IMG/VR virus record: IMGVR_UViG_3300025141_000029
Span: 1 to 64,000 of that record
Reading direction: 5' to 3' (one strand)
DNA: 64,000 bases
Source: a virus
Part shown: positions 9,941-63,823 of the stretch, piece by piece
Position numbering within the stretch: the stretch's first letter is position 1
Layout of the letters: each line of letters starts with the position of its first letter
Notes under the pieces: generated by a model
Told to the model about the DNA's origin: nothing
Seen by the model: only the letters and a program-made list of their open reading frames with translations
The model's database searches: none
Made by a program: the position numbers and the translations under genes

Positions 9941-10606
9941 CTAATCAAGAATAGTTTTCGCTATATTTTTGACTGCCATCCTTTCGTTGCGAGACAAATC
10001 CCTGTAAGTCTCTAAGCCCTCGGTAAAAGTAAATGGCCGGTTATTAACTCTTGTCATAAACTCTGCTTCTTCGCCCAGCTTGATATTGCCAACCTGTACA
10101 GTTTGTCCTAAGCCTGGAAATTCACTGTAATTTGTGCCATACAAGTGTGCGCCTTCACCACCAGCGGGGATAATTAAAACAGAATCTTGACAAAATTTCT
10201 TGCCGAGCATTATAATATTATCAATAAAATCAGAAGCTTCTGGTAAATTAACAACTATATAACTTTCCTCTCCAACTTCCACGGCTTGTGGGGTATCAAA
10301 ATCTTCAACGTAGTTGCCGCCAACTCTTGTAACTCCATAATTTAATGATAGAAGTGTGGCCTTAAGATCTCGATTTCTTTGCTTGTTGACGCGAAGTTGG
10401 ACGCCTGTTCTGCCACCTTTTCCCTTTACTTCGGGTGGTAAATCCTCTCCGCCTCTCAAGGCATCGTCTACACATTTAGACATATCGTTGGGATCGTTAC
10501 GAAAAGCTGTCAATATTGCCGTCTCTGTCGAGTAAATAAACTTATGTACTCTTGAAAGCGAAGATTCATTGAGAAATGATTTCCATTTACCGAGCAAATC
10601 TTTCAT
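9941..10606 (-). CDS. T3 gp0.3-like SAM lyase (SAMase) with N-terminal leader
   Basis: ILTAFR, N..RNR.L...L, GNYVE, GEES, QDSVL parallel the recalled T3 SAMase motifs LVSAFR, N..RHR, GCYRE, TEEK, QDCVL. Confidence 0.7.
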   Translation of the reverse strand: MKDLLGKWKSFLNESSLSRVHKFIYSTETAILTAFRNDPNDMSKCVDDALRGGEDLPPEVKGKGGRTGVQLRVNKQRNRDLKATLLSLNYGVTRVGGNYVEDFDTPQAVEVGEESYIVVNLPEASDFIDNIIMLGKKFCQDSVLIIPAGGEGAHLYGTNYSEFPGLGQTVQVGNIKLGEEAEFMTRVNNRPFTFTEGLETYRDLSRNERMAVKNIAKTILD

Positions 10607-10878
10607 AGATTTCTCTCTGCATATTCAGTACACTTCTTTAGAGAATCAACTTCCCGACTTGGTTCAACAACCACCAGTTCATCAATTCGATATTCATGAT
10701 AATAGTGATCGCCTCCGCGCATTTCGTTTATAAAATCCATCGCACTTTCATACTTCTCATCGTTAAACCATTTTACTTTTGCAAACGACCAATTGTTCTT
10801 TCTTGCTTCCAGATTTGTTACCACGCCATAACGTCGTATGCCTTGATAATTCTGAAATACAATATCGCTAACTTTCAC
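10603..10878 (-). CDS. Outlying MKVGDLV-family protein
   Basis: MKVSDIV...YGVV...AKVKW; GTG start inside the SES* end of the upstream gene. Confidence 0.7.
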   Translation of the reverse strand: MKVSDIVFQNYQGIRRYGVVTNLEARKNNWSFAKVKWFNDEKYESAMDFINEMRGGDHYYHEYRIDELVVVEPSREVDSLKKCTEYAERNL

Positions 10879-11422
10879 TTAAACCTCCTTCAAGTTTATG
10901 TTTTGTGACTTCAATTGGCTCAAACCACACTACAATATCCATGTCCCCTGTCTTGTAACGCGCACCTTTATAGTTTGATTCTTCGGGACTCAACAAGCTT
11001 TCAGGCTCGGAACCATATTTGGATTGTCGTGGTTTATTGGCCAAACTTCTCAATATTCTATCGTAATCCGGTGTCACTCGAAATTGCGACATTGATTTAT
11101 TTTTCAGGTCCAGCGGATCCGTCGTTAAATCGTATATCTGTTCCGCAGGTACAGTTGCTGAGTACAAAGCAGAGTCTTGTTTGACCTGTTCTTCTGCTTG
11201 TTCTTTTTTCATATAGAAAAATACTCTTGGCATGTCTGATACTCTATAATCATTGCGGGAATAATGTTGTCTTTTTGTCAAAAAATATTGAGGATCCAGC
11301 ATTAAGCTGTCTCCCTGTTCTTTTGAAAAGTGATATAGCTTGATATTTTCGTTAGAAAATACATAATCATTGATATCTTCCTGTAAAAGGAATTTTTTCC
11401 AATTTTTAAATAGGAGTTTCAC
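10868..11422 (-). CDS. Putative ADP-ribosyltransferase-fold internal head protein
   Basis: LYHFS...RVFFY...LYSA...IYDL...YKG..Y...VVWF; N-terminus MKLLFKNWKKFLLQE; late motif upstream. Confidence 0.5.
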   Translation of the reverse strand: MKLLFKNWKKFLLQEDINDYVFSNENIKLYHFSKEQGDSLMLDPQYFLTKRQHYSRNDYRVSDMPRVFFYMKKEQAEEQVKQDSALYSATVPAEQIYDLTTDPLDLKNKSMSQFRVTPDYDRILRSLANKPRQSKYGSEPESLLSPEESNYKGARYKTGDMDIVVWFEPIEVTKHKLEGGLSES

Positions 11423-11428
11423 AATTAA

Positions 11429-11436
11429 TAATTAGT
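11429..11436 (-). promoter_or_regulatory. Putative late promoter ACTAATTA
   Basis: Same motif precedes the structural genes. Confidence 0.55.
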
Positions 11437-11530
11437 CTAATCCTTCTTGATGTTCTTAACCAATCGAGTTATAAACATATAATATAATTATAATAACAAA
11501 ATACTAATTTGTAAAGAATTTAATTCCTTG

Positions 11531-11793: not shown

Positions 11794-11865
11794 AGCCTTC
11801 TCGCGGATTTGAACCGCGAACGTCCACTTTACAAGAGTGGTGCTCTACCGTTGAGCTAAGAAGGC
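11794..11865 (-). tRNA. tRNA-Thr(UGU)
   Basis: Cloverleaf GCCTTCT/AGAAGGC, loop CTTGTAA. Confidence 0.9.
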
Positions 11866-12710
11866 ATACAATAATCGCGTATCCTTCTTTCAGATATATC
11901 AATATATTTTGTTTCTAAATCAATTCCTATAAACTTTCTATTCTCCAAAAGAGATGCTATTCCGGTACTTCCCGATCCACAAAAAGGATCGATAACAGTA
12001 CCTCCCTCGGGTACAAAAACCTTGACCAAGTAGGACATTAAAGAAATAGGCTTTGGAGTTGGGTGATCGTTGTATTCTCCCCTTTCTTTGCGTGTTACGC
12101 GAGGAGCATAAAAATACTTTTGATGAGCCGGATTATCAAAATATCCAATTATATTAGAAGGATAGCGTCCAGCTGGGTTGGCATCTTCTTTGCCAAATTC
12201 TTTTTGGGTTCCAGTTGTTTTCCCATCTTTTCCAAAGGTAAGCCTCTGTAAACCGCCCTTTACCCAGCCGGTTGGAGGTTTCCCATCCCATGGAATTCTA
12301 GTATTTTGTGTATCAATTAGCCCCACATTCCATTCCTCATGATTCTTTTTCAAAGAACCTTTGAAAGGTTTTTGAGCCACAACTATAGGCTCGTGGGCCG
12401 GCTTAAGCTTATTTTTCTTGGGCATTTTAGTTGTCACCATCCATATAATTTGATCTTTTATCAAAAATCCACCGTCCTCGACGGCGCAGGCCATCCGATG
12501 ATATAGTTGCGGACTACAAAAACTAAGACAAAAGGCACCTGGCTTTAGAATTCTCTTAACTTCGACCCATATTTCAGACGTCGGTACCGAATGGTCCCAC
12601 GCTTCCATTCCCATGCCATACGGAGGATCAGTAACGCAGCCATCAATACTATTATCGGGCAACTCTTTCATCGCCCCCAAGCAGTTTCCTACTATTAACC
12701 TATGAGACAT
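11856..12710 (-). CDS. DNA N6A/N4C methyltransferase, beta class
   Basis: TDPPY before HPTPKP and DPFCGSGSTG; likely start MSHRLIVGNC. Confidence 0.9.
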   Translation of the reverse strand: MSHRLIVGNCLGAMKELPDNSIDGCVTDPPYGMGMEAWDHSVPTSEIWVEVKRILKPGAFCLSFCSPQLYHRMACAVEDGGFLIKDQIIWMVTTKMPKKNKLKPAHEPIVVAQKPFKGSLKKNHEEWNVGLIDTQNTRIPWDGKPPTGWVKGGLQRLTFGKDGKTTGTQKEFGKEDANPAGRYPSNIIGYFDNPAHQKYFYAPRVTRKERGEYNDHPTPKPISLMSYLVKVFVPEGGTVIDPFCGSGSTGIASLLENRKFIGIDLETKYIDISERRIRDYCMPS

Positions 12711-13353
12711 AATCAAATACCTTTTGTTCGCATGCGGTGCGCATAGAATGTAAGAAATAGTCGACATAATCTTTGCCGCCCATTTGATTGTACATCGCCC
12801 GCGTATAAAATTGAAATCCACGCTTAAACTCATCACTCTCTCTTAATTTTTGATTAAGTTCTTCGTCTGCTTTTCTTGCTTTTTCAAGATGTTCTCTTAA
12901 CATCTTTCCTTGCTCACAAGAAAGGATATCCTGCCCTCGATAGACAGTAGTTTCGTCGGTTTTGTCAGAGCAAAAAATATAAATATATTTCGGATTAGGG
13001 AGACCGCTATTATAAATTGGGTAAACTCCTTGGGCGCTCTTACACTCTAGGTAATAAAGCTTGCCCCCAGACTTAACTATGAAGTCTGGACTTTTGTGAG
13101 TTCCGCATGGTTGCGGAATAAAAGAATTATCAGGTAGTTCCGAATGGTCCCCTCCATCTAGCCACAAGTCTCTTAGACCAGTTTTGGGCGCATGTGTGGG
13201 CATCGATGTTTCGACCAAATGATGTTTAACGAGCAGATCTTGAACAGCATCCTCGTGTTTAGCTTCATTGTGGACATTTCCACTTGACGCAGCATAATTT
13301 TGATAATAGGGCATTCGTTGAATATCCTTCATAATCGCGAGCATGTTGCTCAT
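12700..13353 (-). CDS. Putative PD-(D/E)xK restriction endonuclease
   Basis: HE...SPDF...LECKS; overlaps the methylase start. Confidence 0.7.
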   Translation of the reverse strand: MSNMLAIMKDIQRMPYYQNYAASSGNVHNEAKHEDAVQDLLVKHHLVETSMPTHAPKTGLRDLWLDGGDHSELPDNSFIPQPCGTHKSPDFIVKSGGKLYYLECKSAQGVYPIYNSGLPNPKYIYIFCSDKTDETTVYRGQDILSCEQGKMLREHLEKARKADEELNQKLRESDEFKRGFQFYTRAMYNQMGGKDYVDYFLHSMRTACEQKVFDYVS

Positions 13354-13370: not shown

Positions 13371-13919
13371 CTACTTGTAGTTTTTTACAATCCAGTCGTA
13401 CATCGCAATACCAGAACTGGTACCAACATTTAAACTTCGTACAGAGCCGAACTGCGCTATGTTAACACAATAGTCACATTCTTTTAAGAGTAAAGGAGAA
13501 ATTCCTTCTCCCTCCTCGCCGAAAATCATTAACGCGTTGGGCGGCCACTCAAATGTTTCCATCGGAACACAACAATCTAAGTTGTTATCAAGCGCAACAA
13601 AAACATACTTCTCTTTAAGTTTAAGTAACTCATCGAAATCATTAAGATAATTTAAATCAACATAGTGATGAGTACCAACAGCGCCTCGTCGATCCCAACG
13701 CTTGCGACCAATGTAAAACACCTGAGATGCGTTGAAAGCATTGGCGTTTCTAATCATTGTGCTGATATTAAAGTCACCTTTCCAATGTTCCATTAAGACT
13801 GCGAATGGATGAGCCTTTGAACATAAATCTTCTTTGATATCTTCGATGCTCCATGACTTATATTCATCAGTCACATTATATTTCCAAGCACTCAGTCGCT
13901 CTTTATCATTCATATTCAT
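13371..13919 (-). CDS. SpoU/TrmH-family RNA 2'-O-methyltransferase
   Basis: N...IRNANAF, FGEEGEG, RSLNV SPOUT motifs. Confidence 0.88.
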   Translation of the reverse strand: MNMNDKERLSAWKYNVTDEYKSWSIEDIKEDLCSKAHPFAVLMEHWKGDFNISTMIRNANAFNASQVFYIGRKRWDRRGAVGTHHYVDLNYLNDFDELLKLKEKYVFVALDNNLDCCVPMETFEWPPNALMIFGEEGEGISPLLLKECDYCVNIAQFGSVRSLNVGTSSGIAMYDWIVKNYK

Positions 13920-17523: not shown

Positions 17524-19107
17524 TTATGCCTCCACTATTGCATAGTTTGTTATTATTAATATTGATGCGACCGAAACAGCATTTGTCAAAGCAATTCGAG
17601 CGACCTTTGTCGGGTCAACAATACCTGCCTCAATCATATCAACAATCTCACCATTTTTAAAGTTATAACCACAATTGCCCACTTCAGATTCAATCATGCT
17701 GACGACAATATCGGCCGACTCGCCGGCATTTGTGGCCATCTGTCTGATCGGCTCATATGCGGCTTTCTTGAGAATTTCAACACCTAGATGCTGGTCCTCG
17801 TTGTCTACTTCGACTTCTAAATCTTCTATTGCTCGTACAAAAGCCACTCCGCCGCCGGGAAGAATTCCCTCTTCCTGTGCTGACTTGATTGCCTCAAGGG
17901 CATCTTCAATTCGATGCTTCTTTTCAATCATTTCAACTTCTGTGGCAGCACCGATTCGAATTACAGCAACGCCGCTGGCAAGTCTAGTTATCCTTTCTTG
18001 CATCCTTTCGCAATCTTGTATGTTATCGTTTGCTTTAATTTGTTCCTTGAGGTCTTCGATAGTTTCCTCGACCTTTTCCCAATCTGCATTACCGCCGATA
18101 AAAGTAGTATTATACTTCAGAATATCAGCTTTCTTACATTTACCAAAATCAACTAACTTAACCTCGGATAGTTTTTTACCAGATTCACGATTAACAAATG
18201 TACCGCCGACAGAGAGTGCCAAATCATTAAGAATTTTGCGACGTTCAGTACCATATCGCGGTGCTTTTACAGCAACGATCTTCATTGTGCCCCTCACTGT
18301 ATTCATGATAAGGGCTGCTAGGGCCTGTCCTTCAATATCTTCAGCAACAATTACAAGAGGTTTGCTCTCTCTGGCTACCAATTCTAGTATTGGAAGGATG
18401 TCCTGTACCTTGTCAATTTTGTGATCAGTCACCAAGATGTAGGGATCATCGTATTCAACCGATCCTCTCCTCTGGTTTGTAACAAAGGCATTCGCAAGAA
18501 AACCAGAATCAAAATGAAAACCTTCGGTTACGTCTAGGGTCGTTTCAAATGATTTGCCATCCTCTACGCTAATTGAACCATCATGGCCGGCCTGCTCAAC
18601 AGCCATTGAAATAAGTTTACCAATCGACACATCGTTGTTCGCAGAAATGGCCGCTATGTGTTCTATGTCTTCTTGAGACTCAATGGGACGTGATATATCT
18701 TGTAGCTTAACTACAATCGCTTCTAGCGCCTTATCCATACCTCGTTTAAGCTCCACAGGAGAGACACCAGTAGAAATATACTTCTGAGCTGTGTTAAGTA
18801 TTGCTCGGGCTAATATTGTCGAAGTGGTTGTCCCATCGCCAGCTAAATTTGCAGTCTGCGAAGCAGCTTGTTTGATTAGCTGTGCTCCAGCATTTTCAAA
18901 CGGATCGTCAAAATCAACAAATTTGGCAACTGTTACGCCATCTTTTGTGACTATCGGATTTAATCCTTTTTTATGTAAGAGAACATTTCGTCCCTTTGGC
19001 CCAAGTGTTGAACCAACAACATCTGCTAATTTATTTACCCCATCTAATATTTGGGTCTGTAATCTGTTCCCGCTCTGATATTGCTTTGACGTTATTTCTT
19101 GTGTCAT
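17524..19107 (-). CDS. groEL: Chaperonin GroEL
   Basis: TLGPKGRNV, TKDGVTVA, AGDGTTT, PGGG, G.VDPTKV. Confidence 0.97.
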   Translation of the reverse strand: MTQEITSKQYQSGNRLQTQILDGVNKLADVVGSTLGPKGRNVLLHKKGLNPIVTKDGVTVAKFVDFDDPFENAGAQLIKQAASQTANLAGDGTTTSTILARAILNTAQKYISTGVSPVELKRGMDKALEAIVVKLQDISRPIESQEDIEHIAAISANNDVSIGKLISMAVEQAGHDGSISVEDGKSFETTLDVTEGFHFDSGFLANAFVTNQRRGSVEYDDPYILVTDHKIDKVQDILPILELVARESKPLVIVAEDIEGQALAALIMNTVRGTMKIVAVKAPRYGTERRKILNDLALSVGGTFVNRESGKKLSEVKLVDFGKCKKADILKYNTTFIGGNADWEKVEETIEDLKEQIKANDNIQDCERMQERITRLASGVAVIRIGAATEVEMIEKKHRIEDALEAIKSAQEEGILPGGGVAFVRAIEDLEVEVDNEDQHLGVEILKKAAYEPIRQMATNAGESADIVVSMIESEVGNCGYNFKNGEIVDMIEAGIVDPTKVARIALTNAVSVASILIITNYAIVEA

Positions 19108-60515: not shown

Positions 60516-62348
60516 TTAGCCGGTGCCAGACTCACCAAGGAGTCCGCGGACAACAACAAGGCCATACATATCAGGTCGGACCATCTTCTTAGCGTAACGA
60601 GTCATCACGCCCTTACGGGGCACGAAGTCTTCGGTACCGAAGATTGTCGGAGTGACCTGGAGAGGTACGTACGGGGCATATACATAACCCGTTTCGAGGA
60701 AACTGCCACCCTTACGGCCGACAAGAACCAAGTTACGCGGGAAGTACGGATCAACCCAGAGGTCCCATTTCTTGGAAATGGATCCAACGTTGACAGCACC
60801 AACAGTACCACGATCAGCATCAGCTGTAACGTTAGCACGGAAACCAGCAGTAAACTCAAGGATGTTAGCAACTTCAGGTGAGGTCACCAAGAAGTTAGCT
60901 CCACCACGTAGAGTCTTTCTGTGGATCTGAGCGCTTACGTCATTAACGGTCTCGACAAGAGTCTCATACCATTCGCTGACCGTACCAGTGAAGTCAGGAG
61001 CAGCTGCGCTAGCACCAACTTCTAGACCAGTTGTACGATTAACGAAAAGTCCCGGGGAGCGCGACCAGTAGTATGTACCAGCTGTAGCACCCTGAATAAG
61101 ATCGTTAACGATTTCGCGGTCAATCTCAAGAGCGATCTGCTCAGAAAGAATCTGAGTAAGCTCAACCTCGGCATCAAGGTTATGATAAGCATTTAGGTCT
61201 TGACCTAATTCCGGAGACCACTTGGCCTTCAGTTTCTTGGTCATCGCCGTAACAGCAATACTGTCGACTTTGATATCAATCTCGGGAATGGTATTCTTAA
61301 CATTTCCATCAAACTCATTATCAGGAACATTGCCAGCACCCTCCAAGGGGAAGATATCGCCAACGACGGCGCCAACAGCAGAAGCTTGATCGTAATCATC
61401 AGCAACGGGATAAGTCAAAGCAATTGTACCAGAAACAGCATCAAAGGTAGCTGCAGGACCAGCCAGAGTAACAACCAATCTTTCAGTTCCGCTGACGGTA
61501 ACAAGTTTAGTCAAACGACGAACAAGCTGAATGGTCGTGGAGGCGGGCGGGTCTTCGGCGGCATCTAAGACGAAGCCATTAATTGCCGAAGCCGAAATAG
61601 CAATTAAGTTCTTGCGATTAAGCGGACCAGAATTATTACCATCAGAAGAATAATCATCACTACCGGGCACACTCATTGTAATCTGCAGATAAGTATTAGT
61701 ACTATCAGCAAGAGTATCCGGATCCCAACGAAGAGAAGCCAGCTGAGCGGCACCAGCCGTAGTACCATTAAGGTTGGCCAGGTCCGCCATCGTAGTACTA
61801 GCTGTTATCGGAGCCCAGGCAGACTGGCCGGCCGACGCCGTCAAACCGGGCGCGGCGACAGCGACCGATCCTGTCGGCGAAGTATAACCAGTTTGGAGGT
61901 TATAAAAACCACCGCCGTCTTCTGTAATGTCGGTCACGCCACCAGTTAACTCACTGCCAACCACGCCACCGCCGTAAAGTGACTCACCAGCATCTAGACC
62001 CGACCGTTGTTCGTTAAAAGTAAAGTCCATGAAGAAAATGAGGCCTGACGGGAGGCTCATCGGCTGAACCGAAACGAGATCGTTTGCGATCAAACCACCG
62101 AAAACTCTGCGGACGAGAGGAAACGCAACTGCTGCGAAACCTTGAACGTCGGCGCCGCCCATTGAAGAGGCCTCTTTAAGTAATTGAGCCGCCTGGTTTT
62201 CGAGCAAGCGAGCCATTCCATTTTTGGCACTGTCCGTATTAAGACCCTCTAAAAGACCGGTGCGCTCCCATTTTTCAATGATGGCAGCACCTTCTTTAGC
62301 AAGGGATCTGTCAACGATGCCTTCTGTTAATTTTTTTAAAACTGACAT
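60516..62348 (-). CDS. Major capsid protein (T4 gp23-like)
   Basis: VQPM..PSGLIF, LKA.WS.E..QDL.A.H..DAE.EL..I..EIDRE, YAPYVPL, TRY. Confidence 0.96.
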   Translation of the reverse strand: MSVLKKLTEGIVDRSLAKEGAAIIEKWERTGLLEGLNTDSAKNGMARLLENQAAQLLKEASSMGGADVQGFAAVAFPLVRRVFGGLIANDLVSVQPMSLPSGLIFFMDFTFNEQRSGLDAGESLYGGGVVGSELTGGVTDITEDGGGFYNLQTGYTSPTGSVAVAAPGLTASAGQSAWAPITASTTMADLANLNGTTAGAAQLASLRWDPDTLADSTNTYLQITMSVPGSDDYSSDGNNSGPLNRKNLIAISASAINGFVLDAAEDPPASTTIQLVRRLTKLVTVSGTERLVVTLAGPAATFDAVSGTIALTYPVADDYDQASAVGAVVGDIFPLEGAGNVPDNEFDGNVKNTIPEIDIKVDSIAVTAMTKKLKAKWSPELGQDLNAYHNLDAEVELTQILSEQIALEIDREIVNDLIQGATAGTYYWSRSPGLFVNRTTGLEVGASAAAPDFTGTVSEWYETLVETVNDVSAQIHRKTLRGGANFLVTSPEVANILEFTAGFRANVTADADRGTVGAVNVGSISKKWDLWVDPYFPRNLVLVGRKGGSFLETGYVYAPYVPLQVTPTIFGTEDFVPRKGVMTRYAKKMVRPDMYGLVVVRGLLGESGTG

Positions 62349-63815: not shown

Positions 63816-63823
63816 TAAATAGT
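63816..63823 (-). promoter_or_regulatory. Putative late promoter ACTATTTA for scaffold-MCP
   Basis: Recurring motif. Confidence 0.65.

Follow-up and report, generated by a model that had tools for sequence, protein, structure and literature searches.

The locus

The stretch of DNA analysed here (the window) comprises the first 64 kb of the 157,733-bp viral contig IMGVR_UViG_3300025141_000029 (37.6% G+C) of a marine T4-like phage, and the gene under study, on its minus strand, encodes a 221-residue protein that very probably belongs to the S-adenosylmethionine (SAM) lyases and opens with a short leader resembling the capsid targeting sequence (CTS) of the T4 internal proteins (IPs). SAM lyases are early-expressed counter-defence enzymes of T3-like podoviruses. 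The gene shares a unit with a small protein and with an otherwise unrelated protein that carries the same kind of leader (Table 1), and the contig also encodes a tail sheath, a family B DNA polymerase, a GroEL homologue (17524..19107) and four tRNAs. A megablast search against phage records returned tRNA matches only, so the phage appears to be without a close cultured relative.

Table 1. Features of the SAM lyase unit, and the major capsid protein gene, with their positions in the window (aa, amino acids; AF2, AlphaFold2; ART, ADP-ribosyltransferase; ORF, open reading frame; pLDDT, the predicted value of the local distance difference test)
Feature	Position	Strand	Basis or remark
Long-form SAM lyase gene	9941..10606	-	ATG start, 221 aa; PF23780, AF2 model with Foldseek and VIA
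Proposed capsid-targeting propeptide, residues 1-14	10565..10606	-	Ends L-N-E, predicted cleavage before Ser15
SAM lyase core, PII-like fold, residues 27-197	10016..10528	-	G97, Y99, E113, Q140, D141, S142
C-terminal extension, residues 198-221 (helix 206-220)	9944..10015	-	AF2 secondary structure
91-aa small protein (MKVSDIV-type) between the leader genes, overlapping both	10603..10878	-	ORF
184-aa leader-bearing protein, ART/RES-like fold	10868..11422	-	AF2 model, pLDDT 82
ACTAATTA, one-mismatch variant of ACTATTTA	11429..11436	-	14 nt ahead of the unit's GTG start
Sigma-70-like promoter TTTACA-17-TATAAT	11487..11515	-	Consensus scan, 11/12
T4-type major capsid protein	60516..62348	-	PF07068, phrog_138

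Assignment to the SAM lyase family

We place the 221-residue protein in the S-AdoMet lyase family with high confidence, on the strength of a hidden Markov model match, the predicted fold and conserved residues. Pfam PF23780 (S-AdoMet lyase) matches residues 66-174 with 39.5 bits (E 6.7e-10; curated cut-off 28 bits), and the same family is carried by all 120 homologues among the matches listed. The six motifs that a first-pass annotation of this DNA had given for T3 gp0.3 all occur in the T3 sequence of NC_003298, in the order found here. Its description of a 'T3-like' SAM lyase stands at the family level, by PF23780, fold and residues, but does not extend to a close relationship with T3 gp0.3: alignment of the family profile to that protein by hhalign is weak (E 0.0033, probability 9.7%), with the R-N-R, G-x-Y, E-E and Q-D-x-V-L blocks paired. 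A PDB sequence search with the SAM lyase gave no match.

The AF2 model of the protein (pLDDT 71) was compared with solved structures by Foldseek, a check that the annotation had proposed, and T3 SAMase and Svi3-3 indeed fill the first five places (6zm9, 7ock with two chains, 6znb and 8bb1). VIA-align likewise ranks four SAM lyases at the top (Z 8.0, 7.7, 6.8 and 6.1, where generic PII/S6 folds reach about 5), led by the T3 enzyme 8bb1_E with 129 aligned residues at a root-mean-square deviation of 4.2 and followed by 7ock_L, and residues 21-197 of the model span the entire T3 enzyme. These Z values are middling, so the fold evidence is supportive rather than proof. The C-terminal extension is conserved in the subfamily and lies beyond the range aligned to solved SAM lyases.

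Across 27 homologues, Gly97, Glu113, Gln140, Asp141 and Ser142 are invariant and Tyr99 is kept in at least 90%. Gly97/Tyr99, Glu113 and Gln140/Asp141 align with G-C-Y, E-E and Q-D of T3, and Gly97, Tyr99, Glu113, Gln140 and Asp141 are the equivalents of Gly56, Tyr58, Glu69, Gln104 and Glu105 in Svi3-3, of which only Gly56, Glu69 and Gln104 are strictly conserved in active SAM lyases, while Tyr58 stacks on the SAM sulfonium (PMC7877911). The encoded enzyme probably converts SAM to methylthioadenosine and homoserine lactone.

The same residues leave room for another substrate. One phage enzyme of the SAM lyase fold cleaves SAM-AMP, the type III CRISPR signal, and not SAM, and the two groups of lyases have a PII-like trimer and a catalytic Glu and Gln in common (PMC12255297); the residues conserved here are common to both groups and hence do not discriminate between substrates. 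The window enzyme could then act on SAM-AMP or another SAM conjugate and serve, packaged or not, as an anti-CRISPR protein like the candidate AcrIIIB4. We consider this quite improbable, because the near-invariant Tyr99 corresponds to the tyrosine stacking on the sulfonium, because the Pfam match and the best structural matches are SAM lyases proper, and because methylase and restriction genes recur in the neighbourhood, a setting that suggests a link to SAM and the methylation of DNA. Solved SAM-AMP lyases were absent from the structural matches listed, which is uninformative on the substrate. SAM is, on this comparison of sequences, the likely substrate.

A perfect sigma-70 consensus, TTGACA-18-TATAAT (12/12), lies antisense inside the SAM lyase gene (window 10187-10216, plus strand), and may be a chance occurrence in AT-rich DNA.

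The long-form subfamily

The protein falls within a large subfamily of long forms, about 205-220 residues in length, for which a word-indexed search gave 279 matches and an exhaustive search 868 clusters at 50% identity. Cultured members are found in PANV1, Microcystis phage Mel-JY01, Alishewanella phages, Lak megaphages, Campylobacter CP220-like phages and T4-like cyanophages. A Peptidase_S77 gene was present in all seven of the other complete phage genomes with a long-form enzyme that were searched, which are those of big myoviruses. Fused forms also occur (P0185, P0243, P0249, P0275 and P0281, together with gp6 of S-CREM2 and WWT39336 of Mel-JY01); in some of them an N-terminal domain of 160-220 residues precedes the SAM lyase domain with the [LI]-x-E junction kept, and others have at least 200 further residues after it. 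Some cyanophage members are very basic, with an isoelectric point (pI) of about 10.5, and in this resemble T4 internal proteins (L019:401-916 from a Kyanoviridae genome and L020:2483-2998 from P-TIM68).

A leader shared by two unrelated proteins

The leader pattern fits only two N-termini among the 3311 candidate ORF starts of the 157,733-bp genome, those of the SAM lyase and of the 184-residue protein encoded beside it. The first-pass annotation had likened the two leaders to each other and had seen the first end in an L-x-E site; both leaders are as it quoted them, each is conserved within its family, and L-N-E occupies residues 12-14 of the SAM lyase. In 27 SAM lyase homologues Trp8 is kept in 23, Phe or Tyr11 in 21, Leu or Ile12 in 26 and Glu14 in all, and in the family of the neighbour 20 of 21 members have Trp8. 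The leader is thus conserved in two families that have nothing else in common and whose genes adjoin. BLASTP between the two proteins found no similarity outside the leader, which rules out paralogy as the source of the likeness. In both AF2 models the leader is a separate helix of low confidence (residues 2-12), followed by a coil that holds the L-x-E. Behind the leader, the conserved core starts with E-S-S-L-S-R in 100 diverse SAM lyase members, with Leu or Ile at P3.

Likeness to the T4 capsid targeting sequence

In T4, both IPII and IPIII open with a ten-residue CTS that ends in I-A-E (NC_000866). Propeptides of the T4 internal proteins measure 10-19 residues, residues 4 and 7 of the CTS chiefly govern targeting and residues 8 and 10 processing, and the ADP-ribosyltransferase Alt is likewise packaged, processed and ejected (PMC9026906). 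Counted back from the terminal Glu, Trp8, Phe11, Leu12 and Glu14 of the window protein correspond to Tyr4, Phe7, Ile8 and Glu10 of the IPII/IPIII CTS. Several relatives come closer still: near-copies of the T4 CTS stand directly ahead of E-S-S-L-S-R in PANV1 gp48 (MKTFSEFLGE), in a Kyanoviridae single-virus genome (MKTFKEFLEE), in P-TIM68 (MKTYKEFIQD...) and in the metagenomic protein P0291. We built a leader profile from the ten residues before E-S-S-L-S-R in the 100 diverse members, using the SAM lyase family only; scored against it, the T4 CTS is among the best 0.14% of those 10-mers that end in E, and, with the trivial first and last positions omitted (P9-P2 only), among the best 0.4% of all 10-mers.

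A candidate processing enzyme for such a leader is also encoded. A prohead protease of the Peptidase_S77 (T4 gp21) type is found with 111 bits at genome positions 66686..67330, just outside the window, and the N-terminal part of the phage's own capsid protein, compared with T4 gp23, holds an L-K-E/A-S-S site where gp23 is cut. A second kind of leader, of the MKITK..L..II.EE type, heads four tandem small genes (genome 79631-80912) and a gene adjoining the prohead protease (66219-66680), and the tags that direct proteins to the head may thus be of two classes in this phage.

The leader could also be read as a chaperonin-targeting tag, since it recalls the conserved K-W motif that T4-type major capsid proteins have close to their N-terminus. 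The N-terminus of T4 gp23 contains L-L-N-K-W-K-P-L-L-E (NC_000866; L011:946-1245) and targets fusions to GroEL (PMC3012670), a comparable K-W...L-L-E stretch is present in the capsid protein of the phage itself (window 62200-62348, minus strand), and the phage encodes a GroEL homologue of its own. The likeness is weak, though, as the gp23 10-mer reaches only the top 7% against the family profile; cyanophage relatives with leaders of the F/Y type have no Trp; and such a tag would leave unexplained both the conserved L-x-E and the virion proteome data given below. We regard it as very improbable.

Virion proteomics of homologues

Published proteomics bears on packaging in the cyanophage S-CREM2. 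Virions of this phage, purified on CsCl, yielded 19 unique peptides of ORF6 that cover 26.3% of it, and the authors proposed in 2023 that the enzyme enters the host and shields the DNA from restriction (PMC10665884); the GenBank record labels gp6 as 'S-adenosyl-L-methionine hydrolase (virion protein)'. In an hhalign comparison, S-CREM2 gp6 matches the profile of the window family across residues 1-197, a range that takes in the leader (probability 97.6%, E 2.7e-12). The S-CREM2 paper mentions neither a targeting sequence nor an N-terminal signal nor cleavage (PMC10665884).

A scan of S-CREM2 with the leader pattern gave five matches in 4841 candidate ORF starts, where shuffled sequences lead one to expect 1.2 and reached at most 4 in 200 shuffles. 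All five are annotated genes (ORFs 6, 13, 14, 136 and 154 of OR473000.1, with leaders of the M-K-x-F-x-x-F-L-x-E type), and all five fall within the 52 virion proteins that are known among 221 ORFs. They comprise the SAM hydrolase, an APH/ChoK-like kinase, a cytidylyltransferase and two hypothetical proteins, and so include all three of the 'regulatory' enzymes. In a second phage, the virion-detected cytidylyltransferase S-SZBM1_140 has an aromatic-x-x-F-I-x-E leader. The PANV1 paper contains no virion mass spectrometry.

Weighing packaging against a cytoplasmic enzyme

The findings above should be held against a plainer explanation, namely that the protein is an ordinary cytoplasmic SAM lyase as in T3, unpackaged, in which the helix and the h-x-E-S-S-L-S-R block are structural (serving oligomerisation or regulation, for example) and the likeness to the CTS reflects convergence of short amphipathic helices. 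We rate this explanation as unlikely, but a number of observations weigh on its side and against packaging, and they are gathered here with what answers them.

The first concerns the block itself. [LIV]-x-E-S-S-L-S-R is kept family-wide although anything from 2 to more than 200 residues may stand upstream of it, even where it becomes internal in the fused forms, so the Glu could be structural rather than a cleavage site; the L/I-x-E before E-S-S-L-S-R could accordingly be either a structural feature or a conserved cleavage site. The near-identity of some N-termini to the T4 CTS is hard to attribute to structure alone, and an early view of Glu14 as purely domain-intrinsic was revised on these near-copies and on the S-CREM2 proteome. 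The second concerns frequency: two leader matches in the phage's own genome are not above the shuffle expectation of 1.5, and the case therefore depends on conservation and adjacency and not on the count. That an unrelated ART-fold family keeps the same leader, and that the leader forms a separate low-confidence helix joined by coil in both models, speak against a purely structural role in the lyase.

The properties of the protein are not all those of a T4 internal protein either. With a pI of 5.4 the SAM lyase is acidic, unlike the T4 IPs and the basic cyanophage homologues, and its leader of 14-15 residues is longer than the ten of the T4 CTS and uses Trp. As to timing, a sigma-70-like promoter (11/12) lies 65-93 nt upstream of the unit, a pattern match only and in AT-rich DNA, which makes early, T3-like expression possible; in contig L009 the orthologous unit has no obvious late box and follows replication genes, with those for DnaB and ribonucleotide reductase directly ahead.

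The S-CREM2 authors caution that abundant proteins may co-purify with virions (PMC10665884), and, as our S-CREM2 pattern was written after three of the five matches had been seen, only two of them are independent confirmations. The distant Campylobacter homologue IBB_35 gene 5-9 is absent from the 38 virion proteins identified by gel-band mass spectrometry, which is weak negative evidence, and S-SZBM1_194, a SAM-lyase-like fused protein of 707 residues, is missing from the published virion list as well. The latter has neither the leader nor the anchor block, and under the packaging model one would not expect it in virions. In favour of packaging stand also the 19 unique peptides of S-CREM2 ORF6 and the fact that all leader-bearing S-CREM2 proteins are virion-associated. 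Taking comparative sequence and the published proteomics of a homologue together, we consider it reasonably probable that the enzyme is packaged in this phage by way of a CTS-like propeptide.

The gene unit and its expression signals

The 184-residue protein that shares the leader has no Pfam family match. Nearly all Foldseek and VIA matches to its model, among the matches listed, are ART-fold proteins: RES toxins and ParT (Z 7.1-7.3), MbcT, the catalytic domain of diphtheria toxin, exotoxin A (ExoA) and PARPs. His31, Tyr70 and Glu77 are invariant in its family. By its fold and the shared leader it resembles T4 Alt and might be an injected effector against the bacterial host; by analogy with Alt it is probably a second capsid cargo.

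The order of a leader-bearing protein of 172-184 residues, a small protein of 91-99 residues and the SAM lyase is kept in contigs L005, L007 and L009, with the small protein at L005:3729-4004, L007:3721-4011 and L009:3700-3999. Its position is kept in three related contigs, so the small protein is a stable member of the unit and not a recent cassette landing. A role as partner of the ART-fold protein, or as its immunity factor, is conceivable.

Two SAM-dependent methylases had been reported close by, with the suggestion that they and the SAM lyase may act at separate times, and we find them as an N6_N4_Mtase gene (11856..12836) and a SpoU_methylase gene (13371..13919). The stretch 11856-13353 beside the unit holds the N6_N4 methylase and a 217-residue ORF. 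In relatives, a MunI-like endonuclease and a D12 methylase follow the SAM lyase (L005:4673-6063, L007:4675-6080), and in S-CREM2 Dam and an EcoRI-like gene are near it (gp8, gp11).

Late genes of this phage seem to use a box of their own. For TATAAATA, the canonical late promoter of T4, the genome shows no enrichment and the coding strand not a single copy, and this box was for that reason rejected as the late promoter here in favour of ACTATTTA, of which the coding strand holds 14 copies and the opposite strand 2. Ten copies are intergenic, although intergenic DNA makes up 6.8% of the genome, and they lie 11-57 nt before starts, mostly of virion genes; examples on the minus strand of the window are at 63823, 59679, 59423, 56699, 51821, 38822 and 23470. 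In this phage group ACTATTTA probably serves as the late promoter. The statement of the first-pass annotation that the unit is headed by the late motif holds in that a late-type box is present, but this is the one-mismatch variant ACTAATTA and not an exact ACTATTTA. ACTAATTA has six copies, four of them intergenic and some before tail-region genes. In the orthologous units, L005 has an exact ACTATTTA 6 nt before the start and L007 has ACTACTTA. Late expression of the SAM lyase unit, if not exclusively late, is plausible from these signals. A literature search on the timing of expression in P-TIM68 found none.

Proposed mechanism and its meaning

The explanation that we modestly favour as a whole is that the SAM lyase carries a T4-type CTS, is delivered by the virion and depletes SAM. 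The enzyme would be made as a precursor whose first 14 residues are the CTS; the amphipathic leader would bind the scaffolding core of the prohead, and the gp21-type protease of the phage would cut after L-N-E. The mature enzyme would be retained in the head and would enter the next host with the DNA, so that SAM would be lowered before any phage transcription and type I restriction, BREX and other defences that depend on SAM would be blunted. For this phage, we infer packaging, cleavage, ejection and activity.

A wider proposal is offered tentatively, since as a joint claim we find it doubtful: a transferable code at the N-terminus (Met-Lys, aromatic, x-x, Phe, Leu/Ile, x, Glu) might load a changing arsenal of enzymes into marine T4-like capsids, among them the SAM lyase, the ART-like protein, the kinase and the cytidylyltransferase, with the SAM lyase a zymogen that the prohead protease activates by removing the leader. 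Such a zymogen would explain how SAM-dependent DNA methylases and a late-made destroyer of SAM can occur in one phage.

The idea of a virion-carried SAM hydrolase is not new, having been proposed in 2023 (PMC10665884), and our literature search found no paper linking a SAM lyase to capsid targeting. What is new is the recognition of a T4-type leader on the SAM lyase family, common to other virion-associated enzymes, together with the W-type variant seen here and its pairing with a putative ART-fold cargo. It appears that the chemistry of the T3-type SAM lyase is here joined to the T4 strategy of filling the head with proteins in advance. If this is true, a family of 868 clusters, with marine, cyanobacterial, Campylobacter and gut megaphage lineages, depletes SAM just as the DNA enters and restriction and BREX are at work. 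The leader would then be a simple sequence rule to predict the injected enzymes of uncultured T4-like phages, and is possibly useful for loading foreign proteins into capsids of phages other than coliphages.

Comparison with known systems

With T3 gp0.3 and Svi3-3 (PF23780; PDB 8BB1, 7OCK, 6ZM9) the window protein shares the PII-like fold, the order of the motifs, the Gly-x-Tyr, Glu and Gln-(Asp/Glu)-Ser residues and the presumed role against SAM-dependent defences. It is about 70 residues longer, owing to the 14-residue leader with the N-terminal helix, a variable insert after the first strand and the C-terminal helix, an extension that T3 gp0.3 is without. The setting differs as well, in that the gene stands behind a late-type box in a 158-kb T4-like myovirus, whereas that of T3 is the first early gene of a podovirus.

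SAM-AMP lyases, represented by the accessory enzyme of a C. botulinum type III CRISPR system and by the phage candidate AcrIIIB4 (PMC12255297), belong to the same fold superfamily and have the catalytic Glu and Gln, and the phage enzyme is an anti-defence candidate as the window enzyme is. They differ in acting on SAM-AMP (the phage enzyme not on SAM), in a different T-loop and in having no reported leader or packaging.

The T4 internal proteins IPI-III and Alt (Mullaney and Black 1996, reviewed in PMC9026906 and PMC3012670) provide the parallel for the leader: a short N-terminal propeptide in which an aromatic residue is followed by Phe, an aliphatic residue and, at the end, Glu, all at equal spacing, borne by otherwise unrelated cargoes encoded side by side in a genome with a gp21-type protease. 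The cargoes of both would have a role in anti-defence or host takeover, and the ART-fold neighbour parallels Alt. In contrast to the T4 proteins, the cargo here is a predicted metabolite-degrading enzyme and not a nuclease inhibitor, and the phage genome has a second, different class of shared leader, the MKITK type.

A further parallel is S-CREM2 ORF6, which is homologous across the whole SAM lyase domain and includes the leader and the E-S-S-L-S-R block, in a T4-like phage that also has Peptidase_S77 and in which the enzyme gene lies near phage methylase and restriction genes. ORF6 has 414 residues with an extra C-terminal part, is basic, and bears an F-type leader in two tandem L-x-E segments, whereas the window protein is acidic, has 221 residues and bears a leader of the W type.

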